Assembly (NCBI GenBank): GCA_964016885.1 | Contig: OZ024744.1 | Span: 26,226,001-26,290,000 of the forward strand | Source of the DNA: Eledone cirrhosa | Taxonomy: Eukaryota | Length of the DNA: 64,000 nt | Reading direction: 5' to 3' | Shown here: piece by piece, positions 986 to 63,616 of the stretch | Layout: every line of letters begins with the position of its first letter | Position numbering within the stretch: position 1 is the first letter of the stretch | The notes under the pieces: model-generated | Database searches by the model: none | Told to the model about the DNA's origin: nothing | What the model saw: only the letters and a program-made list of their open reading frames with translations | Position numbers and translations under genes: made by a program

Positions 986-3738
986 TCCCAAAACTACACG
1001 GACCGCAAATTTGTGATCTGTGAAGTTGACTTAGATAGACTCCATAGGCAAGGGCCCGGCTACTGGAAGCTGAACGCGTCGTTCCCAGCGCGCAAAGCTT
1101 ACAGAGACCGGATTAGCGAATTAGTTAAGCGTGCGTTGACGGGTGCGGTCGTCAACAACAGGTGGTGGTTTACCCTGAAAAGGGGTATTAGAGTAGAATC
1201 GATAAGGTTTAGCAAAGGAGTAGTGATAGAGGAAAATAGAGTAGAGGGAGAGTTAGAAAGCTAGAAGAGGCGTTTAGGACAGGCATCGCAACCGACGTGC
1301 TTGCGGCGAGATTGGCAATCGAGCAATTCTTCAATGCAAAGCATGAAGGCTGCGTTGTCAGAGCTAGAACTGGTGCTCTAAGACACGAGGGGACGAAAAC
1401 CGTTCAATGGGCTCGGGTGGTGGAGGCACGATGTGGCAACAAGTCCACAATTCAGTCTTTGCCTCATCAAAACGGGCGCATGTCGCTCGAACCCAAGCAG
1501 ATGTGTGCGGCTTTTCAAAAGCACTTTGCTCAATTTTTCGGAAGCGCCAGCGGGCCGGATCGGAGTATGGACTTCGGTGCATACCTCGACGGACTGCCGC
1601 GGCTCTCGACGACCGCAGCGCAGTGCTGCGAATGCCGATAAAAACAGGCGAAATACGGGAAGCGATGTCTGACAGAATGAGAGGTAAATCGCCAAGTTTG
1701 GATGGTTTGCCCTACGAGCTTTATGCGTATATGCCAGATTGTTCGGCGACCTCTTGGCAGATGTCTACTGCAACTCACAGCAGAAAGGGAGCATTCCCAG
1801 TTTTGTGAGCCGGGGAGCGGTGGCGCTGCTGAGAAAAGACCCGAACAAGGGGGACGTTATAGACAACTTCAGGCCCATAACTCTGCTAAACGCAGAGTTT
1901 AAGATTTTGGCCAAGGTGTTAGCAAATAGATTGGCGCTTGTGATCGGTGATCTGGTGGGTGAGGAGCAGACATGCGCCATCCCGGACTGAGCTATCCACG
2001 ACAACCTCCATCTCATGCGATACATTATAGTGAGAGTGGTTAAGGAACCTGGCACGGGTGGGGCCCTGATCAACTTGGATCAATCCAAAGCATTTGATAG
2101 GGACGACCATCGGTACCTGGCTGCGGTCATCGAGGCAGCTGGCTTCGGGCGTTTTCAGGGGCTGTATCGCTGCGATGCACAGCGTCATCTGCTCGATTGT
2201 GAGGGTGAATGCTCACCTGACGCAGCCTTTCAGCATCATGAGCTCGGTCCACCAGGGTTGCCCCCTCTCATCCATCTTGTACGTACTGGCCCTAGAGCCT
2301 TTACTACACAAATTGGAGACGATGAGGGAGGTCCCACGCGAACTGAGATACGGGAGATCCATGTCAGCTTGTGCCGACGATGTTACCGTGCTGGTGTCGA
2401 GCACCAAACATTTCCAGATGCTCGGCACCGCTCTCAAGGAATACGAAGCGGTAACAGGAGCAAAGATAAACCACGACAAGTCGGTGGGCTTGCAACTTGG
2501 CACCTGGAGAGGCAAGTCCATGCCGTCCGACAGCGTCGCGGGGCGCTGGATGGAAGAATCGGTTAAATTGCTCGGGGTCTGGTTCGGTCCGAATCTCCAG
2601 ATGGAGAAAAACTGGAGCGAGGTGACGATTAGGGTGGGCTCTCTCACACAGAAATGGGCCGAGAGGAGGCTGTCTCTGAAAGGTCGGGCGGAGGTAGCGA
2701 ATGCGTACATAGCGTCCGTCATATGCTACCGCCTGACCGTCGTACCTTTCCCCGCCCAACACTGACCAAAATGGAGCGCCTTCTTTCCGCTTTTTGTGGA
2801 AGGGACATGCTCCCATGGTCAGTCGATCAATTTGCTGTCAACACCCGTTGCGTGGAGGACTAGGCATGCCGTGGCTGATGATTCGCAAACATGCGCTGAG
2901 GCTGCGACATCTCTGGTGCTTCCTTGATGGTGAACAGGTGTGGTCGCTGTTTGCCAGACGCGCTTTTCCCCAGCTCGTCTCCTTGACGGAGCTGAAGTCC
3001 TGGATCAAGAAAAGACCGAGGAATAGCGCTTGGAAGATGGGATTTCTCCAAGCGCTCACCGCCCTCTACCGGCTGGGCATTAGTATCGGTGGAACATCCA
3101 CCTCAGCGTTTTATAGAGGGCTAGTGGAGGGAAAGAGCGACGACGTTCTTGGGGATACCCTGGGCGTCGAAGACGATAAGCTGTTCGTTCTCTTCAAGAA
3201 AACTTTCAGACTGGGGCCTATGTACAACTTCCAGAAATCCCTGGCCTGGCAGTGCTACCACGAAGCGTTGCCGGTTCGGGATAAGCTCTACAGGCACGGA
3301 GGTGCTGTCAGCCGAGCCTGTCCGAGATGCGCGCAGGGCCACGAAACTGTCCTGCACGCACTCGATCAGTGCCCGAGGATTGCTGACTTGTGGAACTATG
3401 TCGAACAGCTGCTGTCGCGTGTAGGACGGATCCGGTTATCGACTGAGGCCTGTGTGCAGATAGCCCCGCCATCCTACTTTAAAGAGGAGGAAGGGCAGGC
3501 AGTTTTCATCTGCCTGGTGGTCATGGCGAAAGAGATTGTGTGGTGGACAAGGTTGAAAGGGTTGAAGACGGGCACCTTCCTCTCCGGCCAATCCCTGATT
3601 AACTTTTTCAAGTTTCACTTGAAGAGGAAAATCAGGGTGAAGAGGCAAGTGCTGCTTTCTAGCAAGTTTGTTGAAAGGTGGGTGAATGTAGCGAGTCTGG
3701 TCCGAGTGAACGGGACCGCTCTGAATATACGTGTGTAG
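986..3738 (+). pseudogene. ORF2 remnant (end of APE, reverse transcriptase, C-terminal zinc-binding domain)
   Basis: RT motifs are spread over ORFs 929-1264, 1297-1641, 1739-1990, 2094-2765 and 2794-3738, with frameshifts and stops. Confidence 0.9.
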
Positions 3739-4042
3739 TTTGAAAAATGGAAAAATTGAGAGAGGGCACTTTCCTTGGTGGTCAAGGTGGCCGTGGTCTT
3801 TTGTGTGGTTTTCGCCACGAGTAACCCTCGGAGGTCCCCCCCCCCCCCCCCACACAATCGGGGACTTTTTGATTGTTTCAATTTTCATTTTTATTGTTTA
3901 AATATATATATGTTTCTCTGTCCTTTTTTTTCTTTTCTTATATAAATAATAAAAATCTTTACACGCACAAAACCCACATCGTACCGTCATGTGCCGTCTG
4001 TAATGTTTTTCTTGGTGTCAGCCCTTGTGGTTAATAAAGAAA

Positions 4043-4043
<1 letters not shown>

Positions 4044-4074
<31 letters not shown>

Positions 4075-5115
4075 GTTATTACTCTTCGAGTCTCAGTCAT
4101 TGATGTTAGTTAACTGGAAAGTTTGTTGAGATGAATATCAAGCCACTACCTGCAGCCTCAGATATTCAGGACGTATCGGAGGGTTCTTGCTGTTCCCAGC
4201 AAGCATGCCTTTTGAAGCGTTCCAAAAAGCGTGAAGGGGCCAATTTTCTTTAACCATCCCTGGAAACCTTTTGAGATAGTCCCTAGTGCGCCTATGACAA
4301 TCGGGACCACTTTCACTTCATGGCAGTTCCAAATCCTTTTTACCTCCCACTTTAGGTCCTGGTATCGGTTAATTTTCTCCCTCTCCATCTCTTGCACTCA
4401 CGTGTCGAATGGGCAGGCCACATCCACAATCAGGCACGATCTTTTTTCTTTGTCCCAAACCACCAGGTCAGGTCTATTGTGTTCCAGTTTCTTGTCCGTC
4501 TGTATCCTAAAGTCCCACAGCACCTTCACCTGATCGTTTTCTATCACCGACTCTGGCTTATGCTCATACCACTTCTCAGAATGTGGTAAATTGTTTAGTT
4601 TGCATAGGTGCCAGTGGATCACCCTGCCCATCATATCATGTCTCCAGCCTTTATAGTGAGTCTGGGCTAGATGTTTACACTCGGATACAATGTGAGCCAC
4701 AATCTCCTCTCTCTCCACAGATCCTGCACAGTGGGCTAGCCTCCTCCTTGTAAATATGGTGTTTCAACCACTTCCTTTTGAAGGCCTGCTCTTGCGCAGC
4801 CATTAAAATTCCTTCTGTAGCCTTTTTAAGGTTTCCTCTTTTCAACCAGTTCCATGTCTGTGGATCTCTGAATTCAGTTTTCTCAAAGAAGGTACTATGA
4901 AGGGATTTTTCCTGAAGGTTGCTCATTCTCCTCGATGTTATTTGCTCCTTGGACATCCCCTGGTCTATTGTCCTCTCCTTCAATACACTTCTGAGCATTT
5001 GCTCCTTACTATCAGTCACGTATTTGTGTAGGTTGTTTTTCTCCATCTGAACACAGTCCTCTATGCTGATAAGACCTCTTCCATCCTCAGATCTCCTTAA
5101 GTAGAGTTTATCGAC
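4044..5115 (-). mobile_element. R4/Dong-like non-LTR retrotransposon 3' fragment (zinc knuckle + restriction-like endonuclease) abutting (TAA)n
   Basis: Minus-strand ORFs read CRICGE..E..AHIVSEC, RHDMMGRVIHW, LWDFRIQTDKKLEHNRPDLVV..CLIVDVACP, EKINRYQDL and VPIVIGALG. An (ATT)n run lies at 4044-4080. Confidence 0.85.
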
Positions 5116-5233
5116 TTGGGGAGTTATGTCGAACAGCTACTGTCGCGTGTAGAACGGATCCGGCTATCGGCCGAGTCCATAGTCAATATCGACCCGCCGC
5201 CTTCTTTGGTCAGGAAGAGCAGGAAATGTTCCT
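5116..5233 (+). mobile_element. Short fragment of Tx1/L1 ORF2 3' end
   Basis: Near-identical to 9941-10058 (ggagttatgtcgaacagct...gacccgccgccttc). Confidence 0.85.
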
Positions 5234-5654
5234 ATCATGAAAACAAATAGCGACAACACCAACGGCAACAATACCAACTGCACCGAGAACAACGGTGGCA
5301 ACAAAGACAACAATGATAACAGCGACAGTGATAACAACAACACCAACAAGAACAACGTCAACGACAGCAACACCCCCAACAAAAACAAGAAGAACACTTT
5401 CGCTGCGGCAGCAGCAAAAAAGAGGCAATGCTTCAACATGGACCTATCATGAAAACAAATAGCGACAACACCAACAGCAACAATACCGACTGCACCGAGA
5501 ACAACGGTGGCAACAAAGACAATGATAACAGCGACAGTGATAACAACAACACCAACAAGAACAACGACAACGGCAACAACACCCCCAACGAAAACAAGAA
5601 GAACACTTTCGCTGCAGCAACAGCAAAAAAGAGGCAATGCTTCAACATGGACCT
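5232..5654 (+). repeat. ~213-bp tandem duplication of the Asn-rich ORF1 start
   Basis: cctatcatgaaaacaaatagcgacaac...cttcaacatggacct occurs twice (ATGs at 5237 and 5449). Confidence 0.9.
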
Positions 5655-23013: not shown

Positions 23014-23099
23014 CATATATATATATACATTATGAAGAGAGAAGAAACATTTAGATATAATTAGTAATAAAATGTATCATACCTAAACTGCTCCTAAAT

Positions 23100-23189
23100 T
23101 CCTCGACTACGTAGTTTCGTGGCATAAACAAAAACAATATATCATAAAGATATAGAGTCCCTGCGAGGTCTGCCGACTTATCAAGAGGA
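23100..23189 (-). ncRNA. Type I hammerhead ribozyme, U3:A8 core variant (UUGAUAA), long stem II insert
   Basis: Minus strand: tcctc-TTGATAA-gtcggca[~45 nt]tgccac-GAAA-ctacgtag-TC-gagga. Stem III (actacgtagt) is a perfect palindrome. Confidence 0.75.
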
Positions 23190-23437
23190 TACCTCATTTT
23201 ACTAGTCTCAAGAACGCGTCTACACGACGTGAGAAAGAATCCCAAAAGGCGGAGAGGGAGATAGTCACGCGATATAACGGTCGAGAAACAGAGCTAAGCC
23301 TCCTATAACCACGAAGAAAATACCACGGAGGCGGAGGGGGTATTCATATCGAGGCCGCAGAAGAGGTGGTGAAGAAGGCTAGAAGTATGAGTAATGGAAG
23401 CTTTCCAGTTGTCCCCACACTTCAAAGATTGCTCGAC

Positions 23438-23477
<40 letters not shown>

Positions 23478-23486
23478 AATATATAC

Positions 23487-23582
<96 letters not shown>

Positions 23583-23583
<1 letters not shown>

Positions 23584-23796
23584 AAACGAAGGAAATGTGG
23601 TAAGCAACCAGATGGACCATAACGCACCAAAGTACTCAATACTTAGGGTAGTAGAGTTGGTAATAGGAACGAGTAGGACCCCGACGGCTGAGCTCAAGCC
23701 GTTTCGACGGGTAATTCTGGACTAAAATAGTCCAGAATTTTAGTCCAGAATTAGCCGTCGAAACGGGTTGAGCTCAGCCGTCGGGGGTCCTACTCG

Positions 23797-23800
<4 letters not shown>
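23583..23800. mobile_element. Fold-back terminal fragment of the U3:A8-HHR PLE family (truncated in stem II)
   Basis: gaccccgacggctgagctcaagccgtttcgac...gtcgaaacgggttgagctcagccgtcgggggtc, flanked by (TA)n. Confidence 0.75.
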
Positions 23801-23847
<47 letters not shown>

Positions 23848-31234: not shown

Positions 31235-32482
31235 AAACCACATTCCATAATGCTAGGTACACTAAACAAACGGGATGGTCATGTCCGTACATATATATAG
31301 CTACACAACAACCCTAGACAGAAGGAGATCAATTTACAGGTACAACAGATTTCCTACACCAGATTATCCATTGTTCCAGAAAGGAAACAAACAATATGGG
31401 AGGGAGGGCGTTTGATTAGAAACTTAAAATAGATTTGGAAATGTTTGCTTACATACATGTTCAAACATTGCAAAATTTGCTTCATCTAACAGATAGAGAG
31501 AGAGTCCATTTTTCTATGCTAAAATGAGAGATCACAGCTCAGATACTATGTCAATGTTGTTAGAGTGCCTCAGGAAAGAATCACTGGATAGATTTTACGA
31601 GCAAAACCAGCCAGCAGGAGACCCAAGCATAGACTCCGAGCAAGATGGCCGGATAACCCCCATGAGCATGGCTCGTCTCACCTGGGGACCCAGCCAGATT
31701 AGTTGGAGATGGTTGCTTCTGACAGGACTTGCTAGAAGGAGTGTTTGAGGACTGAACCATTAAGAGAGATTCAATATTGTTACAGAGTTTGTTGGGGGGT
31801 TATTCAACTCAATAGAAATCAAATAAAATATTTCAAAATTGTTTTTACTTTCTGAAGTTTCAGAGGGGGCTGCATTGGTCTTTGATTTTGGTCCTGAAAA
31901 GAAAAGGGTATATGTTTAAATAAAATAGATTGACGTGAGGTAAGAAGGAATAGGATATATATTTGTTGGTATAAATGTGTTAACACGAGGGAAAGACTAA
32001 ACAGTATATGTTTGTGAGTATAATATTGGCATTGGTGGGAGGGCAAAAATGAGTTTATTGATAAAAATCATGGGTATATATTAGTGGATATAGTTAGAAA
32101 TTAAATCTTTACTACTGTTGTCCCATCAACAGTGGAATTTCAGTATTTCAGTTGAAATTGTGTTTTTAGTAGCTAAAGAATTGTGGAAATGTTGGGTGGG
32201 AAGAATGAGGTATATATTTATGGATAAAAATCAATCGTTTTATGTGGAACAAGACACGGGTGTATATTAGTGGGTAAACTTACTAAAGAATGAAAAGGTT
32301 ATATTTGTAGGCAAAAATAAATTGACGAGGTGGGGGAGGGGACAATTATCAATCATTTGATCTGGAATAGGAAAGTAGGTATATATGATCTCCTTCTGTC
32401 TAGGGTTGTTGTGTAGCTATATATATGTACGGACATGACCATCCCGTTTGTTTAGTGTACCTAGCATTAAGGAATGTGGTTT
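31235..32482. repeat. ~95-bp inverted repeats about 1.05 kb apart
   Basis: 31235-31331 (aaaccacattcc..gaaggagatca) is the reverse complement of 32386-32482. Confidence 0.85.
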
Positions 32483-32576
32483 ATATATATAACAAAGGAA
32501 ATGTGGTAAGGAACCAGATGAACCATAACGCACCAGAGTACTCAATACTTAGGGTAGTAGAGTGGGAAATAGGAAA

Positions 32577-32686
32577 AAGTATGGCCCCGACGGCAGAGCT
32601 CCAGCCGTTTCGACGGCTATTTCTGGACTAAATTAGAATTTTTAGCCTGGTGAATAAATAGCCGAACTTGTCAAGGGGGTATTTCC
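32577..32686 (-). ncRNA. Type I hammerhead ribozyme, U3:A8 variant (UUGACAA)
   Basis: Minus strand: taccccc-TTGACAA-gttcggctattt..aaatagccgtc-GAAA-cggc(tggagctct)gccg-TC-gggg. Confidence 0.8.
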
Positions 32687-33290
32687 TTATATGGGAAGAT
32701 TGTAGTTGTCAAGAGGATTGGTTAAAATTTGTTGTAAACACAAATAAGTCTATCATGGCATTTGGTGGGAGGTAGGGGTGGCTGAACTTGCCTGTAGAAG
32801 AATAGGGGAGTGAGTGGAGCCGGTCAAGCGTTGAAAGCGATATGTATACAGCAGATTCTAAGGATAGTGTATGAAGTGGAGGAGGGATGTTATAGAATAG
32901 GTTAATCGAATGAGAGTAGGAGACAATAAAAGATACTAGAAATAAATAAAAAATATATAAAATTAGATAGTGAGAAATGAATTAAAAGAATCACAATGCT
33001 ATCTTACAATTACAGGTTAATAAGTTGAGTATAGAAAAAAATGTGTAGAAATTACAAAACTGATACACAATTAAAGTGGTTTAACACATCTGCTATAAGT
33101 AGTTAGTAAAACGTATTAGGCCAATTCTATCTTAAAATGACAGGGGTGGGGGAACTGATGCTACAGAGGCCCGATGGGCTGCATCGGGGTAGGCGAAAGG
33201 GGAAAAGCAGACGAGGAAGAAAATAGATTTATTTGTGTTTACAACAAATTTTAACCAATCCCCTTGACAACTGCAATCTTCCCATATAAG

Positions 33291-33399
33291 GAAGTACCCC
33301 CTTGACAAGTTCGGCTATTTATTCACCAGGCTAAAAATTCTAATTTAGTCCAGAAATAGCCGTCGAAACGGCTTGAGCTCTGCCGTCGGGGTCATACTT
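33291..33399 (+). ncRNA. Type I hammerhead ribozyme, U3:A8 variant (UUGACAA)
   Basis: aagtaccccc-TTGACAA(33302-33308)-gttcggctattt..aaatagccgtc-GAAA(33365-33368)-cggc(ttgagctct)gccg-TC-ggggtcatactt. Predicted cut is after C33387. Confidence 0.8.
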
Positions 33400-33402
33400 T
33401 TT

Positions 33403-33442
<40 letters not shown>

Positions 33443-42407: not shown

Positions 42408-43135
42408 GGACCACGAGGGCTGTGCTGCGGCCATTTTAACAGCTAGATCCGAACTGAAGTGCCGGTATTTACCCGAATACCGGCCGCTTCAATTCGGATC
42501 TATCTGTTGAAACGGCCGGAGCTCAGCCGTCGGGGTCCTGTATCTTTCATATTACCCACTCTACTAGCCCAAGTATCGAGTACTCTGGTGAATAATAAGG
42601 ACCTACCAATCTCTGAAGCTGAGCGCTTCCTCCTCGCCCGTGGTTTGCGTTTTATACCAACCACAGCTACCTGCACACGGACCGAGATTGAAGGGTTCTT
42701 CCGTCGATTGAAGCTGAAAGCTTTTTTTCACGACACTCCATCATCGATACAGACGGATGATTTCACTCGTATCAGTCACCGGCAATCACATTAGACGCCG
42801 AGCTCTAGCCAGTTCAGCACCCTCGACTTCTTTGTCGATCCTTCTATCTAACACACCCGTAATAATCTATGAAGACCAAACCAACAACATGAGGTCAATA
42901 TATATATACGTATGGTGGTGGGCCGGTTTAAAGAACGTTTCCTTAATCATCAGACGACAGTTAGACATTCGGGAAGCGATCGGCCACGAAGCTGGCAAGC
43001 TGCATATCGTCACTTAACGATTCAGACGTGGATTACTCCATTCAATGGAACCTTCTGACCAAACCTAGGCCATACAGAAATGGGAATTTGTCTTGTGGTC
43101 TGTGCATCATCGAACAATAAATATACTTCATCGAT
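42408..43135 (+). mobile_element. Heavily deleted Penelope-like element: fold-back HHR-family terminus, N-terminal ORF piece and GIY-YIG remnant
   Basis: gaaacggccggagctcagccgtcgggg runs into DLPISEAERFLLARGLRFIPT..FFRRLKLKAFF, and later IYV..FKERFLNH and DYSIQWNLL..CGLC. Confidence 0.75.
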
Positions 43136-45476: not shown

Positions 45477-46141
45477 ATATATAGTAGAATAATCGAGTAT
45501 CGAAAAATCGGCGCACGAGTTCACGATAAACAAAATTCGATATGAGCGGCAGAGATAAATCAGAGCTATAACTATCGTTAAAATACCGTTACACATAGAA
45601 CAAGTCTATAATCAACCGTACGATCGAAAATTTGCGATCCGGAAGATTCGGGACACTCAGATAAAGAATCAATAAATCAATAAATTAAATGAATGTAAAA
45701 AGCATACCCGGACCCGCTAAGAAGATGTTAAATCTAGCTTCTTGGGTTTCTGTAAATCCTTAAACTGTTATCTCTCAGCTCACATAAAAATATATAAGAT
45801 TTCTAGGTACCAGTGGACAGGAAAATTTACTTCTTCAACGAGCTTTGTCCAAGCGAATGAAATGGCATAACCCAAGCTAAATACGCACATGGAATTCGGC
45901 AAGGGAGATAACCTCTACATCCGCGAAAAATATTCGGGAAAATGTGGAAATACACATATCGAATAAGAGTGCTCAATAGACATGTTAAAATAAACAGGAG
46001 CTATTCATCATTTAATAGAATCGACAAAAAATGAACAATAAAATTAACTGGTCAATAGCTAGGTCTAGAGCTAAATATAGTAGAATAATCGAGTATCGAA
46101 AAATCGGCGCACGAGTTCACGATAAACAATATTCGATATAT
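45477..46141 (+). repeat. ~65-bp direct repeats about 597 bp apart
   Basis: atagtagaataatcgagtatcgaaaaatcggcgcacgagttcacgataaacaa at 45481 and 46077. Confidence 0.85.
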
Positions 46142-46306: not shown

Positions 46307-47544
46307 CCAGATCAAAGAAACAATTGTCAGCACTATGAATAAAGTCCTTATTGTATAGACAACCATCTTACTCTTATCTCTTAAATTATTATTACTCCAA
46401 GTATAACCTACATACAAATCACCGTGAACTCGCTGCATCACTATGGAAGCGTCTTGTTGAGTCAAACTAAGCCATACGTTAATACCATCCACAACACAGA
46501 GTACTCTAACTGGACTACCTCTAAGTGGATTGCCTATAACGATAACTTGTTATCCCTTATATATATATATATGTATATATATATATGTTTGTCTGATGGT
46601 AACTAAGAAGCTTCCATAGGCGGTATGCCGGTTGAGCACTCTATGTTCTTACAGAGCAGAGTGTGATATAATATAAAACGAAAATCAGTGATACATCTGA
46701 ACTGAATTTATTGTGTGTTACAATTGTTTCGTCGGCAGACAGCTCGAGACACGATCATTGTGTGGATCTGTCTGATTCTGGATCTGCAGGTTCGTCGGAC
46801 ACTTCTAATAACTTCGGATCAAATTTTCTCACTGGGGTGTTAGCGTCAAAACACATCCGCTTCGCTCGTCCTGCTATTGGCTGTTGTTTTCCTATGTCAT
46901 CATACATTTTTACCAACAGGTACTGTCAAAATTGACCACCAGCTGTCCCTTTTCCTGCCACACTTCAATGAATCCCCGCTGGGTTTGGTAGTTCACACGT
47001 ACATGCGCGCACTCACACACATATCTATATATATATATATACACACACAATCATACACACACATACGCACACAATCATATAAATAACAACACATCCGTAA
47101 GCATATACTCCCGCTATACATACGCACCCATAAAACTATAGACATACACGTCCACAGACGCCTGCCTACATGCCCACGTACATCAACTCACACACACGCA
47201 CACAGGCGCACACACATGCATATGCGTATACCTACTCGTATACACAAACACGTACAGACATATACATAGACACGCTCACGCACATACACACACCTGTCCA
47301 TATATATATAGGCACAAAAATAGACACGTTCGCAAACACACAAATATATGTATATGTATATATATATATACATATATATACACTCAAACCAGCCCTTACC
47401 CTACAGTGGCTGCACATACACACACACACACACTGGCTCATAAACATTCTTACAAATATGCGCCTATTACCTACAGGCCCACGAACTTCTACAAAGATAC
47501 ATACATATATCTGTCTATACACAAATATGATATATACACAAAGT

Positions 47545-50065
47545 TTTAGCTCCACAATGAAAAGCATGGAAGAATGCCAGGATTTACTTGTGCCCTCGGA
47601 CAAAACTGGTAATGTATACATGCTTGACCGTTTTACATACAACGACTGCATCGGGGAAGAGGTTAGGAAAAATTACAGGACCACAGGACAGAACAACCTA
47701 GATAACATTAACGCCACGACCAAAAAGAAATAATGACCGGGCTAGGAATAGATGATAGGGCCGAAATATATGTACCTAGAAAACCTTGGATATCCATTAA
47801 GGATTATAAATTAGACTTTAGAACTAATCTACCTGTTAGGCTAATAGCACCCTCCAAATCAGAAATAGGTAGGACCAGCAAGAATATCATAGACAGAATA
47901 CTACCGGTACTTAGGAACAAAACTAGGCTTAGCTTATGGACCTTCACTAAGGAGGTAATTGACTGGCTCTCGCTAATAGATAGCAAACAGCAGGTAAATT
48001 GTATTTAACTTAGACATAGCGAATTACTACGTGTCAGTATCACCTGTAATAGTGAACAAGGCCCTCATGAGCGCCATGGCCAAGTTCACCTCACTAGGGA
48101 GGAGGCTAGCCTCATAGTAGCAACTAGAAAGACGCTAATTAGATTCGAAGACAAGTTATGGGAGGGGAGGGACAGATCCCACAGTTTCGATATTAACATG
48201 GGGTCAAGCGATTCGGCGCAGGTGACCGATCTGGTGGGGATCTATCTCCTCCATAGATTAGCGGAGGAGATCCCAGGGATCGGCGGAGGAATATACAAAT
48301 ATAACGCACTTTTTACCTTCCGTTCCCTAAACCCCAGCCAGATGGAGAGTATGAGGAAGCGGATATCGCATTGTTTTAAGCAACACGGCTTATCCGTGAT
48401 GATAGATCCTAGGACTAAGACGGTGAATTTCCTGGACGTTACCCTGGAAATGAATACGAGCATCCACCAACCTTATGACAAGAGCAATGAGAACCTGCAA
48501 TTTGTGAGCAGGCTATCGAACCAACCCAAGTCAGTCATAGAAACAATAGTTAAAGGGGTATCAAAACGCGTATCCATCTTGTCGGCCAACGCAGACGTGT
48601 TCAAACAGCACACCGACTATTATAATGAGGCACTGCGCAGGGCCGGTTACACAGACAGCATAGTGTATACAATAGACAGGGAAGAGCCTAGCGCTGAGCC
48701 ATGCGGATACGGCAATAGCTGTGGCACTTCCATAGGTAGAAGAACTGACTCGGTACTAGCCTCCAAGTACACGAGTAGCAAGCAGGACCGACAATAGGAC
48801 AGACGAAGACACACACGAGAGCTAGACCACCCAGTACACGTAGACAAAGGCCCGGCACGCACACCACATTCGTCGCGGTAACTAGAACTAAGGACAGGGT
48901 AACAAGTAAGGCCGTGGCGCCCGCTAGAGGGAACACCCGGCCTGGTAGCAGTTATAGCCCCGACAACAGCACCACATAGCATTAAAGAGACTAACAGTAG
49001 AGCCGACAATACAAAACGGAATACCTTAGTAAAGGAAAGGCGTAACCATGACGCCCACAGCAGACATATAGATAGAGGCAGCATAGGGGACGTAATAATG
49101 GGCGGGCAAAACTCGAGATGGACATCAGACCCAAGACACACTCACACTACTACACACACACGCGAAAAAACAAGACTAGATCTAAGGCCGTTACATGGTT
49201 TAACGTGGCGTATTCTAAACATGTACGCAGCAATGTGCAAGGGCTTTTTTTTCCAAGCGTTAGATGAGTGCTTCCCGCCGTGGAACAGATACCACAAGAT
49301 TTTCAACCGCCACACGTTGAAGTTTTCCTTCTCCACAGCACCTAACATGGCAGATACATGGCCAAAACCAACGCGGTAAAGCTGGGGAACCTCGACCGTC
49401 AACCGCGGCGGCAGAATGACCGTCCATCAGAGCCGGAGGGCCCCTCGAGGACCGGTCTTCCAACAACAACCCGGCCCTCGCGGCGGCCGCCACGCCCGCG
49501 GAAGGCGATACAATCCAACGCCGGGAGGGAACGAGTGGCGGGGGAGAGCACCTTGCCGGTTGAACAACACCCTGAGAATCGGGAGAGGGCCCTAGCAAAT
49601 CAAGGGCCAGGCGTCCGAAATGAACAAAATAACGACAGAACATGTAATTGCAGAGCGAGCACCCAGAGCCCCCTGCAGGGAAGATGCCTGACGATGGGCT
49701 TGGTATATAAATCTGTGGTTAGCACGCACCATAAAAAGCGCACCTACATCGGCGCAACATCCACGACCTTTAAATCGAGGATGTAAACCACACGAACGCT
49801 TTCAAGGACCGCAGTAAGAGGCACCCTACTAGGCTAGCGGATCTGGTGTGGGACTTGAAAGACAAGGACACCCCATACGCCCTTGACTGGAGTATCGTTC
49901 GGCACGCGAATGCATACTCGGTTGGAAGTATAAAGTGTAGCCTATGCCTATACGAGGCCATGGAGATAGTCAGACTGAAGGATGAAATCGGAAATAATCA
50001 TGACGTGCAGACACCAGAGAAGGTGCACACTCTCCGCATGGAATCCACCGGGAAGACAGGCTAAA
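47545..50065 (+). mobile_element. Penelope-like element: degraded RT + GIY-YIG ORF
   Basis: Translates as LLVPSDKTGNVY, IKDYK..PVRLIAPSKSEIG, MGSSDSAQVTDLVG, VNFLDVTL, FPP..YHKIFNRHTLKFSFS, CNCR..PLQGRCL..LVYK..TYIGATSTTFKSR and CSLCLYE. Confidence 0.9.
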
Positions 50066-51202: not shown

Positions 51203-51315
<113 letters not shown>

Positions 51316-51339
51316 TGTATATATATATATATATATATA

Positions 51340-51523
51340 TAGGAACGAGCAGGACCCCGACGGCTGAGCTCAAGCCGTTTCGACGGCTAATTCTGGAGTC
51401 CAGAATTACCGGTCGAAACGGCTTGAGCTCAGCCGTCGGGGTCCTGCTCGTTCCTATATATATATATATATAGTAGTTTGGTGCGTTATGGTCCAACTGG
51501 TTCCTTACCACATTTCCTTTGTT
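51340..51523. mobile_element. ~116-bp palindrome of U3:A8-HHR-family 3' halves plus tail, inside (TA)n
   Basis: aggaacgagcaggaccccgacggc...gccgtcggggtcctgctcgttcct. Confidence 0.8.
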
Positions 51524-51534
51524 ATATATATATA

Positions 51535-57839: not shown

Positions 57840-60662
57840 CTATGGCCTTGAATGGGAGTAGAAAACATAGGAATCATAGAAATATTATAGATATATCCAA
57901 ACCGAACCCTAAGTTTAGCTACCGAAATAGTAGTCGGATTAGTGAGTCTAATGGTACGCATATCGAGATCAGTTCTAGGGAGCAGGATAGGCGCTCTGAA
58001 CGTTCACCCAGTGGTGATGTTTTAACTGCTTCTAATAGTGTTAATTCAACTGATCCTCATATTAACCCTGATCCTATTAATAGGATACCAAATTACGGTA
58101 GAGATAGTAAAGGAGGAGACTCAATACTTACTTTAACCCGGCTTTTGACCATGAAGTATTAACTAATATCCCTAGGTCTTTCTTTTCTATCTTAGAGAAA
58201 AATTTCCCTCCTACTAATAAATATCATGGTATATTTAATAAAAACGTAATTAAACTCTCCTTCTCTACCACCCCTAACATTAATGCTCATCTAGCTAACA
58301 CTAACAATAGGAAAATTAGGGATAGCTACTCCTCTTTGCGTACTGCTAATCTAGATAGCTCTATTGATAACTTACCGCCCGAGCAGATCTTATCTTATAA
58401 TAACCCTAGGAATAATGCATCGCGTAATCAGCTAGTCACTAGTACCCGGAAGTGTAATTGTAGAGTAAGTAATAACTGCCCTTTAAATGGTCACTGCCTC
58501 TCTAGGAACATTGTTTATGCTTGTGAAGTTAAGACTAATTCTTCTCGTAGCACATATATAGGCTCCACATCTAATACTTTTAAAACTAGGTTTAATTCAC
58601 ATATTTCTAATTTTAAGCATATCAAGTTTAAGAACTCTACTTCTTTGGCACACCATATATGGGATTTAAAAGGGGCTGGTATACCATATAGCCTAAATTG
58701 GCGAATAGTAGCACACTCTAATCACCTATCAACACACACTAAATTCTGTAATCTTTGTATCCGAGAGACCCATTCTATAATTTTCTCTAGGAGCATATTG
58801 CTTAATAGAAAATCTGAGATATTTTCTTCCTGTCCGCATGCCATTTCTAATTCTTTCTTCTATTAGAGACCTAAAAGTTCCGGTAGTTTAAACCGTATCC
58901 ATTAGCTGCTATATTTCCCTATCTCTTTGGTTTTAGTTCATTTTTATTACCATTATTATTAATTTTCTACGGTTGTTTCGATTTTCGAATTTTAGTTTTC
59001 ATAGTCGTATTAGCTACCTTACCATATCTATCATCTTAAACATTATTACATTTTTACTCATTATTATCGCCTTGTAAGTTTGTATCTTATTGAATAGTTT
59101 AAATTTTGAGTCTCCTACATCTAAAAGTAATGAACCTCCTCCTTTCCACACTTCATATTCGCCCCTTTTTATTATATTATATATTAATTCTACTTTTATA
59201 CTCCTTTTTATTATATTATATTATATATTAATTTTTACTTTTATGATCCTTCCTATCCTCCATAGTTTCACTTCTTTCTGTTCCCATTGGTCTACCATAG
59301 TTTTATTTAGAGTTTTTTCTTTGATAACGTAATTCATCTGATCGGATCGTAATATATATTATATTATAGTTTTTATTGAAATATCCTAATTGTATACGAC
59401 TTTGATGACTTAAACTTGATTCCATTTAGAGTTACTAATAATATCTTTTAGGCAATTTTAATATTAATTAATTTAATAAGGTTTTCTATTCAACTCTTTA
59501 GTTTAGAATAATAATACCTTCTATATTTACATAATGACTCGTTATACCTACGTACTGTGCTTGTTTTTGTTTTTTTGTTTTTGTTCTTCGTTTTATTTTA
59601 TTTTATTTATTTATTTTACTAACACTTGATGTATATCTTCCTATCATCATCATCATTACTTCTTCACTACCACTTGCTGTTTTGTCTTTCTATAATATGC
59701 TTTGCATCATAACATGCCTCCCTATATTAATATATTAATCGTGTAAATATCTCTTAAACAATTTCAATTGACTCTGCCAGTCTGCTTTTATATTTTTATA
59801 TTATTAAATTATTTATCATTATAATATTAACATTTATATATCATATTATTTCTATGTAATGGAATTATACGTATTATTTTATGTCTGATTTTTAAGGTAC
59901 TGTTTTGTTATATTTTATAATATTTTGTAATATTATGAATGTAAACTGCATATACCCCTATATACTTATTATCAATACTTTATGTATTTATGTATTTATG
60001 TATATATATATATTTTTCAACATACTCCAGTTTTATTTTGATATTTTTTCTTGCCCTGTGTAAAACTTTATATACAATTTGTTGACATTAAGTGATATGT
60101 ATGATGTAGTTTTGTATATTTTTGATGTCAGTATATTATTATATTATTTCTTGTATAGCTTATTTTTTGTATAGTTTATTTTTTGTATAGTTTATGCGCA
60201 CCGTCATGGTGATTTTTATATTATAAAGAGTATATTTATACTTATTAAGTGTTAGTATGTGTTTGTGTAAATGTGTATATATGTACATATATTAAGCTTT
60301 ATAGTTCTTATTACCCATTATATTGTATTGTAATTCTCATATTATATGACCATGTTGTATTTAATGTTTTTGTATTATACTGTAATTTCAACGTTGGTTT
60401 GACATTTTACTCACTTTCTTGCCCTATAGTATATATTTGTAACTGCAAACTTTTAGCTTTAGTATGCTTTTCCTTCATATCTCTCATAAGCTTTCATGGA
60501 TATGAATTCCCTATTCTTCTGAGTTTTGATGTTCTGGCCGTTAATTCTTCTTGTCTGTTTAATTGCCCTGATGAGTCCTTATTAATGGGACGAAACATTG
60601 TAGGCTAATAAAGACTTTTGATGTATTGAAGGCTTCTTTGTCTATTTTTATAATTTTTATAA

Positions 60663-60839: not shown

Positions 60840-61095
60840 CTTTCACTCGTGTAGGACACCTCGGTTATTTTTCATTTTGTAAAAAAAAACTAAAAAATAA
60901 AAAAAAACTTACTTTCTAATATATATATATATATATATAACAAAGAAAGTGTTGTAAGAAACCAGGTGGACCCTAACGCACCAGAGTCCTCGATACTCAG
61001 GGAGGTAGAGTGGGTAATAAGAAAAGAGTCACGATCCCGACGGCTGAGCTCCGGCCGTTTCGACAGCTAGATCCGAACTAAACGACTAATAACCT

Positions 61096-61195
61096 GTACC
61101 TCTTGATAAGTTCAGCTAGGTCTCTGCCGTCCTAATACTACTCATTTTATTCGGATTTAGCTATCGAAACGGCCGGAACTTAGCCATCGGGTTCC
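61096..61195 (+). ncRNA. U3:A8 hammerhead (UUGAUAA), diverged subfamily, partly decayed
   Basis: acctc-TTGATAA-gttcagctaggtct..ggatttagctatc-GAAA-cggc(cggaactta)gcca-TC-gggt. An inverted partial copy lies at 60938-61078. Confidence 0.65.
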
Positions 61196-61211
61196 TGACT
61201 CTTTCCCTATG

Positions 61212-61289
<78 letters not shown>

Positions 61290-61296
<7 letters not shown>

Positions 61297-63616
61297 AGAT
61301 CAAAAGATGGTTAAAGGAGTTCCATGTATTTTATTATGCGCATTTCAAAAACAAACATCATCATGCAATAATATTTGTGTTTTCATCAGATAAAACAGGA
61401 GAACATGATATGAAGGCTAAAAAACACTTGTTGATAGTGCAGTTTTAAATCAACATATGAAAAGTGGTTTTCGATTGATGTGTGATATTGGGAAAAATAT
61501 TTTATTTAGAGAGGGGGGTGGAAAGGATGAAAAGGGAAGGAGATGAGAGGGAGAGATGGGTGATAGAGAGAAAGAGATAGTTTTTATAACTGAGAGGAGA
61601 TATATTGTTTTACATAGAGAGGTTGAAAACCGTTGGAAGATAATGTATAAATTAAAAATTTTGAAAATTAACGAAGGGAGGATATGTGCGAGGAAAAAAT
61701 ATTTTATTTATGGAGGGGGGGTGGAAAGGATGAAAAAAAGGGGGAGGAGATGAGAGTGAAGGTGGAGAGGGAGAGATGGGTGATAGAGAGAAAGAGATAG
61801 TTTTTATAACTGAGAAAAAGATATATTGTTTTAACATAGAGATGTTGGGAACCGTTGGAAGATAATGTATAAATTAAAGGAATTTGAAAATTAACCAAGG
61901 GAATTTATGTATGAAGATAGAGAGAAAAAAATAATAATTGTGGATGAATATTCTAACGTCAAAAAAGAAATGTATGTATTGTGGCAATTTCAAAATTAAC
62001 GAAGAGAAAAATTATTAAGGTTTGTGTGTAGAAAGATTTGAGAAAAATAATGTGAAGTTAAAGTTTGTATATTGAAGGAATTGATATTATATGCGAATAA
62101 AGAGTTAATATGTATTAATAATGAGTTCGTTGATGGGGAGAAAAAAATAATAAATTAAGGATGAAATTGAGATTAAAAAGATTTATGATAGAGAGAAAAA
62201 ATAATAATGATTGTGGATGAATATTCTAACGTCAAAACAACAAATGTATATGTTATGATTTTACAAGGTGAAGATAGAATGAGGGTAATGAGTAAACAAG
62301 TATTATAGAGTGTATAATGCCCTTTAAAGTAAGGTAGATGGATATATTTTAAAGAGGTGTATGTATATGTGCCTTTGAGAAAAGATTCTAAATTGATAAA
62401 GAATTGAATATTAACTGTATACTTTGTGAAAAGTTCTATGGAATTTATGCAGGCAGATAGAAAACAAATCTGTGCGTCTATTTATTATAGAATCTAGGTT
62501 AGAGATAATGGTAAATTTTTCATTTAGGCAGAGATTACAGATTTTAGATAGAGAGCTGTTCAAGTATGAGGATGCAGAAGAAATCTTCTTCCAAAAGATG
62601 GTATATTTAATGTTTTTGTCTTTTAAGGACCATATGAGTTCTGAGAGAGCAGTGTTGGTTCTTTTAAGTTTGTATTTGAAAGATGAATGATGATTATAGA
62701 GACGAGCTTTAAAAGAGGTGGAAGTGGAGCCAAAATAGGTGAAGGAATTGGTGCTAGTTATAATTTTACATTAATAAATTAAGTTTTTATCGAGACAATG
62801 GTTGTTGAGAGGACATTTATTTTTAATGCGGCAGTTGCAATTAGAGAGATTATTAATGAGTGATCTAGTGTTATCTATAGAAGGAATTGGATTGGAGAAG
62901 TTGTTTGCGATAGGAATAATAGGAATAATAGTTTCTTGATTTAGAGTTGGATTATGAACATTTAGCGAAGTTGTGTTTGACGTTGTATTTGGGTTTACAG
63001 AAGTTAGCCTAGGGTTTACAATGACGTCGGGAGTACTATTACTGTTATTATGAAATTCAATATTGGAAGGAAGAGATTTAGTATTTAGTATTTTATTGTT
63101 GTGTTTAGAGATGATGTTGGAAATATTGGAGGATGTAGAATACGAAAATTTGATGGTGTGTTTGTTAAATATTTTACTATAGATATGTGAGGGAGGGAAG
63201 CATTTATTTAAGGCACTAAAAAATAATTTAGGAATATTGTTATTAATAGAGATGGAGAAAGGAGCATTATACCAGATTATGTTTTTGTATCTCGGTCTTT
63301 TATTAAAATTATTGGAATGGTCATGATTAATTATTCTACTGTAAGTTTTTCTAGAATTTGTTTCTTTACTATATTTGATTTTATCTGGATAGCCGGCTTT
63401 AGAAAGTGCGTTATTATAGTAATTGGCGTTAGCATCAAAGATGTTTTTATTAGAAGATATGTTAGATATTCTATTTCCAATATTATTAACAATAGCATTC
63501 TTGATATTGGTAGGATGGTTAGATTTAAAGTTAACATATTATTGCATGATGATGTTTGTTTTTGCGCATAATAAAATACATGGAACTCCTTTAACCATCT
63601 TTTGATCTTATATTAT
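61290..63616 (-). mobile_element. 5'-truncated Penelope-like element with inverted partial terminal repeat
   Basis: The minus strand at 63300-62400 reads KCFPPSHIYSKIFNKHTIKFSYSTSSN..CNCRIKNKCPLNNHCL..TYFGSTSTSFKAR..CNLCLNE. 63536-63616 is the inverted copy of 61289-61374. Confidence 0.88.
61327..61397 (-). ncRNA. Type I hammerhead ribozyme
   Basis: Minus strand: tgttttat-CTGATGA-aaacacaaatattattg..tgatgatgtttgttttt-GAAA-tgcgca-TA-ataaaata. Stem III (atgcgcat) is palindromic. Confidence 0.8.

Follow-up and report, generated by a model that had tools for sequence, protein, structure and literature searches.

Hammerhead motifs with a U3:A8 core and an amplified C3·A8 mismatch state in Penelope-like elements of Eledone cirrhosa

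Introduction

Which bases does a hammerhead ribozyme tolerate at positions 3 and 8 when it is carried by a mobile element? The C3–G8 pair belongs to the active core (PMC3884650), and the 3–8 pair is treated as essential in the active hammerhead. The question is raised by two inverted, outward-facing motifs in a window of 64,000 nucleotides from Eledone cirrhosa (contig OZ024744.1, positions 26,226,001 to 26,290,000), both of which have U3 and A8 in place of the canonical bases. A sequence-only reading had taken them for a functional variant at the terminus of a Penelope-like element (PLE), with C3U and G8A as compensatory changes. Here, we describe the fold, the host element and the subfamily history of this motif, and show that elements with a mismatched C3·A8 core nevertheless made at least 1,807 copies as well as later subfamilies. 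Published work is cited by PMC number.

Results

Two complete type I hammerheads in the window

The plus copy (33291–33399) and the minus copy (32577–32686) each place three helices around the core and are open at helix I, as is characteristic of type I. In the plus copy, stem I pairs 33298–33301 with 33388–33391, and core positions 3–9 occupy 33302–33308, with U3 at 33302, C at position 7 and A8 at 33307; the minus core lies at 32674–32668. The long, irregular stem II (33309–33364) starts with G10.1 (33309) paired to C11.1 (33364), followed by a 2 × 1 internal loop, a 9-bp helix, another internal loop and a distal helix. The 9-bp stem II of the sequence-only reading therefore does not abut the core. 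G12–A15.1 occupy 33365–33368, and stem III with its loop spans 33368–33387 (strands 33368–33372 and 33382–33386; 5 bp including A15.1–U16.1), up to C17 at 33387. A 6-base palindrome in the loop of stem III had been overlooked. U4, G5, A6, A9, G12, A13, A14, the A15.1–U16.1 pair and H17 are all present in the window copies; the 3/8 pair is Watson–Crick (U3:A8) in both, and the canonical C3 and G8 are absent. From hammerhead numbering, we infer cuts after C33387 in the plus copy and between 32589 (C17) and 32588 in the minus copy.

Anatomy, folding and descriptor searches agree on two inverted, complete type I hammerheads with U3:A8. The hammerhead fold is dominant in both copies, with P of 0.97–0.98 for stem II and 0.90–0.93 for stem III. 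In shuffling experiments, 1 of 200 shuffles was as stable as the plus copy (z = −2.55) and 17 of 200 were as stable as the minus copy (z = −1.50). A relaxed descriptor gave six matches in the window, with both copies scoring 17, while no match in 20 shuffled windows reached 16. No Rfam hammerhead family matched the window at E ≤ 1 or positions 33240–33404 at E ≤ 10; as anticipated, CUGANGA-based descriptors, and Rfam as well, miss the motif. Other hammerhead-like descriptor matches lie at 45838 (−), 52190 (+) and 61389 (−), of which two have a canonical core and the third is U3·G8 and has long helices; the folding of all three is unremarkable (z from −0.35 to −0.57).

Helix III, at 5–6 bp, is predicted to form in the monomer, and the palindrome in loop III also permits dimers. 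This is not the minimal hammerhead, in which helix III is absent or limited to 1–2 bp, unstable, and forces dimers. For the two window copies, a stem III self-duplex is predicted to outscore two hairpins by 13.9 and 16.3 kcal/mol. A mutually exclusive fold over 33308–33382 and its homologues was also seen with RNAalifold, pairable in 95.7% of cells across 20 copies with one double change; its pairing is possible since stems II and III have 3′ strands that repeat one another, and since the beginning of stem II can pair with loop III. The alternative could be an off-state released by dimerisation, and it is preferred in some other copies. We retain it as a lead only, since it is 4–5 kcal/mol worse than the hammerhead in the window copies.

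The insertion and its host element

The inverted arms that carry the two motifs (32569–32753 and 33223–33407, 185 nt each) are 97% complementary, with 6 differences. The short arm (33223–33407, plus strand) consists of the final 185 nt of the pLTR, has no tail and abuts a (TA)n tract; many family copies stop at the same base, just before (TA)n. The long arm of 745 nt (32482–33226, minus strand) is the 3′ end of a 5′-truncated element, that is, the pLTR together with an 87-nt tail (32482–32568) corresponding to the first part of the ORF region of the element, and it matches loci L032–L034 at about 94% over 750 nt. The outward-facing pair is one inverted, 5′-truncated PLE insertion in the usual PLE arrangement, a tailed minus arm with a tailless inverted arm, as drawn in PMC8557442. 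A 97-nt inverted duplication (31235–31331 and 32386–32482, 99%), the right copy of which runs precisely up to the insertion's left end, may be a rearranged target flank.

A full element was found at locus L031, where hammerheads at 2923 and 6019 (3,096 nt apart) flank an ORF at 3052–5338. Between the pLTRs, this ORF carries RT and C-terminal GIY-YIG motifs in a broken frame, and its N-terminal frame matches 32548–32486 in the long arm (tblastn). The proposed location at a PLE terminus was thus borne out, with the motif in the pLTR and the ORF link at L031. The RT and GIY-YIG motifs were read by eye in the frames of L031 and L034, which are interrupted by stops and frameshifts; Pfam gave no match on three family fragments, and 472 homologues were counted. 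Clade motifs, also read by eye, are DKT, RWR (for RWK), a CxCX5C linker, and CxxC and CxH near the end of the EN, while the insertion sites of the family are (TA)n. By these sequence motifs and targets, held against the definition given in PMC8557442, the element is assigned to the Hydra clade of PLEs. A search of its own 3.0-Gb genome with the 125-nt motif gave 1,533 candidates, and at least 28 of the 41 matches listed are 100% identical to the window copy.

The sequence-only reading had drawn the ORF link elsewhere, at 42590. There, a 3′ half-fragment of the family terminus (42506–42590, plus strand) abuts an unrelated PLE-like ORF fragment, which turned out to be a one-off junction to a different repeat and not the element's own ORF: all 39 other genome matches start at query position 93–95 (~42598), and no meaningful similarity links the peptide to the family N-terminus (E 0.01). 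The peptide carries a GLRF motif that, in our own reading, resembles the GxKF of other PLE clades.

Further family members in the window include an older-subfamily fold-back at 60930–61247, whose plus arm has a U3:A8 core with U at position 7 (61103–61109), and fold-backs at 23576–23847 and 51315–51532 that are cut off inside loop II and lack the core. Diverged PLE fragments, with 27–44% identity to RT/EN pieces of the family, lie at 47533–48800, 49816–50037, 58111–58866 and 62429–63538, and one of them has a weak GIY-YIG match in Pfam.

Core states at positions 3 and 8

The tabulation of positions 3 and 8 that had been proposed for this genome was carried out with exact 19-nt patterns in two sequence contexts, counting cores with a pyrimidine at 3 and a purine at 8; reversed-pattern controls gave zero. 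U3:A8 accounts for 3,631 of the 5,511 exact matches (2,465 and 1,166 by context) and C3·A8 for 1,807 (598 and 1,209; 32.8%), followed by U3·G8 with 57 (46 and 11) and C3:G8 with 16 (13 and 3). These counts are lower bounds for the two contexts, as a third context is visible in sequencing contigs. A8 is near-fixed (98.7% of the 5,511), and G at position 8 stayed below the 4% cut-off in the contigs of three sequencing runs. The claim that U3:A8 is the family majority and not decay is therefore upheld, while strict compensatory covariation of C3U with G8A fails: C3·A8 is abundant, and C3:G8 was seen 16 times against 24 expected under independence of the two positions, in a comparison where copies are not independent observations. 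Position 7 varies freely across the family, as in hammerheads, and there is a small subfamily with a U3·G8 majority (6 of the 7 matches listed in its context).

A second sample was free of the core pattern and comprised 60 loci from the first 100 3′-half matches listed. Its 105 half-matches include 90 without a core, 8 U:A, 5 C·A, 1 G·A, 1 misaligned and no G8. The sample excludes close fold-back pairs and about six known U:A copies and includes three loci already known to be C·A, so that the C·A share is put at roughly a quarter to a third. Among the 15 core-spanning copies sampled in this way by the 3′ half alone, 14 retain U4, G5, A6 and A9, and one is misaligned.

The 3′ half has 23,365 exact matches as compared to the 5,511 of the core, and most family copies are short fold-backs. 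Their 5′ breakpoints cluster 39–50 nt past core position 3, on the 3′ side of loop II (in the window at 23663–23804 and 51339–51463), which suggests an RT stall or an RNA end.

Subfamily history

Subfamilies were defined by clustering and trees, and the two agree. The tree contains 124 of the 187 collected copies over 345 nt, with positions 3, 7 and 8 masked and G8 copies oversampled by design; the other 63 copies, which had no full-length match, were dropped. It is midpoint-rooted with no outgroup, and the canonical ancestor is unseen, because a metagenome scan for outgroup elements found no relative; direction was taken from within-group divergence.

The tree has the form of a ladder that leads from old U:A and small G8 subfamilies to the U:A subfamily of the window and then to C·A. 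At a 100/96 node of 82 rows, the basal members are C3·A8 with G7, and eight further supported nodes on, a 100/96 node of 28 rows regains U3 (U3:A8). The internal path through the C·A state amounts to ~0.18 changes per site, with branch lengths summed by hand. A four-row, long-branch group of fold-back chimeras inside the C·A ladder is noise, and most C:G copies are isolated tips within C·A clades. Within-group divergence from the column majority, for 94 rows grouped by hand from the tree, is 0.098 and 0.067 in the basal groups, 0.025 in the group of the window, 0.046–0.049 and 0.027–0.029 in C·A groups, and 0.021–0.023 in the re-reverted groups. Coding sequence of the element itself is present at C·A loci (tblastn matches in 10 of 20). 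Because the C3·A8 ladder kept the rest of the fold and then reverted to U3:A8, the mismatched core appears to have stayed transposition-competent. These results suggest that the 3:8 pair is far less essential in this family than expected.

Selection on the fold

Along the entire ladder, changes fall in 9 of 50 core and stem columns as compared to 201 of 295 others, and the difference holds among columns that the search pattern leaves unfixed (8 of 33 against 201 of 295, p 1e-6). G12–A15.1, U16.1–C17, position 11.1 and the 3′ strands of stems I and III show zero changes, and three stem II pairs are altered on both sides between deep subfamilies, that is, in a compensatory way. For 20 hand-picked copies, there are 18 double-change cells over the whole structure, whereas shuffles give 10.4 and none of 500 reaches 18, in a control that ignores relatedness and in which two of five measures did not exceed the shuffles.

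In the C·A interval alone, 2 of 50 core and stem columns changed against 61 of 295 others (p 0.003). The difference weakens to p 0.06 among unconstrained columns (2 of 33 against 61 of 295), which behave no differently from loop II (3 of 33, p 1.0). Selection on catalysis during the C·A interval is suggested by the column changes. The 3′ half may be conserved for another reason, since the core is altogether missing from ~86% of the 3′ halves in the sample (90 of 105).

A second U3:A8 family

Another hammerhead family with U3:A8, unrelated in sequence, is found at 23025–23439 (minus strand, core start at 23184) and in loci L238–L257. It has a short palindromic helix III and the same 2 × 1 loop after G10.1–C11.1 as the first family. 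There are 486 candidates, and 40 of the 41 matches listed are 100% identical over 146 nt. It occurs as 595-nt tandem or partial-tandem units, with inversions, in (TA)n, and has no similarity to the pLTR of the first family. It is likely a young non-autonomous PLE derivative or a retrozyme. With metazoan non-LTR retrozymes (PMC7229834) it shares a short tandem unit and one type I hammerhead per monomer, whereas its unit length (595 nt as compared to ~300 nt), its U3:A8 core and its PLE-like partial tandems and inversions in (TA)n are different. Hydra-family RT/EN sequence (~90% identity) adjoins the 595-nt family in 2 of 20 loci (L242:1780–3025 and L256), which may reflect either nested insertion or co-mobilisation.

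Discussion

On balance, we favor a slow ribozyme for which any pyrimidine·purine pair at 3:8 suffices, and we consider this reading somewhat probable from the sequences compared here. The type I hammerhead of the pLTR would likely cut its own RNA slowly after C33387, which would free unit-length element RNA from tandem or read-through transcripts; after re-ligation or circle formation, reverse transcription could cross an intact junction. A re-ligation or circular-template model fits because every inserted copy runs unbroken across the predicted cut site; the same scheme, in which unit-length RNA is released and then ligated or used as a circular template, was put forward in PMC4209133. Besides acting singly, two pLTRs might cleave as a dimer through the palindromic loop III, in line with the dimer cleavage described for PLE hammerheads (PMC6765202). 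As for the rate, only a G:C swap rescued the C3–G8 pair in a deep scan (PMC9901934), from which one would expect U:A and C·A to be slow, and PLE hammerheads cleave poorly in vitro (PMC4209133). The constraint at 3:8 is probably one of pyrimidine·purine geometry, Watson–Crick or wobble, since masters spread with U3:A8, C3·A8 and U3·G8. In its protonated form, a C·A pair is near-isosteric with U·G, and a slow ribozyme would be enough for the element. More tentatively, it is possible that the hammerhead lineage stayed catalytically useful through successive C3·A8 masters, by a protonated wobble or a slip onto G7, with four pyrimidine·purine cores on one scaffold.

The fold might instead be a non-catalytic structural signal, used for RT or endonuclease binding or for 3′-end definition, with catalysis lost or irrelevant and position 3 free to drift. 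We regard this as unlikely, even though the mismatched core lasted over the whole ~0.18 changes per site and exact 3′-half matches far outnumber core matches. Naiad and most Chlamys PLEs also spread without canonical hammerheads, and the authors of PMC8557442 term the function of the HHR in EN+ PLEs unclear. What speaks against a purely structural role is that the unpaired catalytic G12–A14 and C17 are unchanged along the ladder, which is statistically modest alone, together with two further points of equally modest individual weight: the retention of U4, G5, A6 and A9 in all but the misaligned one of the core-spanning copies sampled by the 3′ half, and the return of the lineage to Watson–Crick U3:A8.

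A Watson–Crick pair could also be needed after all, if C3·A8 copies were inactive alone and served as substrate strands that U3:A8 copies of the same period cut in trans, by way of the palindromic helix III. The strong predicted self-duplex of helix III, the similar ages of subfamily A, which is U:A, and subfamilies C and D, which are C·A (0.025, 0.027 and 0.029 from the column majority), and the dimer cleavage of PMC6765202 are in its favor. However, the enzyme-strand parts of the C·A copies, superfluous in pure substrates, are near-unchanged, with one distal change in 18 columns (3′ strand of stem II, 11.1, G12–A15.1, 5′ strand of stem III), and rare RNAs would have to be co-expressed. We consider this account quite improbable.

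Very improbable, in our estimate, is a register slip in C3·A8 copies, whereby C3 would find its partner in G7, A8 would take the place of A9, and A9 would be left as an extra base before stem II; a C:G pair would thereby survive at the cost of the N7 spacer. A G stands at position 7 in 95 of the 100 C·A matches listed in one context and in 97 of the 100 in the other; G7 arises at the same node as C3, and U7 is back only after the U3 reversion. An extra base between 9 and 10.1 is, moreover, typical of PLE hammerheads (PMC4209133). Yet this was a single evolutionary event, which a founder effect explains equally well, and G7 persists in U3:A8 descendants. Loss of the spacer should also strain the U-turn.

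That the window copies are chance or decayed forms of a canonical CUGANGA family can practically be set aside: it would accord with File S2 of PMC8557442, in which each of the 26 hammerhead rows of the Hydra clade has C3 and G8 (the descriptor used there required a canonical core), but is refuted by the core counts, with C:G in a mere 16 of 5,511 matches, and by the identity to the window copy of at least 28 of the 41 matches listed.

If, as the slow-ribozyme reading would have it, a mismatched core cleaves well enough, the hammerhead consensus widens and descriptor searches undercount. If the PLEs of this clade need no cleavage, that bears on the role of hammerheads in pLTRs. Both readings can be put to the test, as the genome supplies natural copies of all four kinds (U:A, C·A, U·G and C:G) on a near-identical scaffold.

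Comparison with known systems

The novelty that had been allowed for U3:A8 itself does not stand. U3–A8 is present in ~1,300 PLE motifs of Schistosoma mansoni (Cervera and De la Peña 2014, PMC4209133), and C3–G8 covaries to U3–A8 in several natural hammerheads, with in vitro activity cited (Perreault et al. 2011, PMC3088659). The Cercyon PLEs of S. mansoni share with the present family type I motifs in pLTRs, U3–A8, a long helix II, G10.1–C11.1, a palindromic helix III region, and pairs that lie ~3 kb apart or on opposite strands at 100–700 bp (PMC4209133). In contrast to the Cercyon minimal hammerheads, the motif here has a full helix III of 5–6 bp with a palindromic loop and a stem II of ~55 nt with internal loops. 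The host is also different, being a Hydra-clade element, and there are large C3·A8 subfamilies, of which the accessible text of PMC4209133 makes no mention.

The C-terminal EN+ PLEs of the Hydra clade, including Hydra-1_Obim (Craig et al. 2021, PMC8557442), share DKT, an RWK-like RWR, CxCX5C, CxxC and CxH around a conserved E/N, (TA)n targets, a tail on one end and an inverted 5′-truncated copy. Their hammerheads are canonical and short in all 26 rows, the Hydra-1_oBim motif is different in sequence, and their units are generally <3 kb as compared to 3.1 kb here. Since all of these rows are canonical, the Hydra clade is a new host clade for the known U3:A8 variant. Our literature search met no natural C3·A8 hammerhead and no octopus PLE hammerhead variant, a weak absence given that subscription papers lie mostly outside its coverage. 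The variants of Perreault et al. are rare and compensatory, and the portions of PMC3088659 available describe no amplified mismatch state. The U3:A8 core alone is known and ordinary, while the amplified C3·A8 mismatch state is the finding worth testing.
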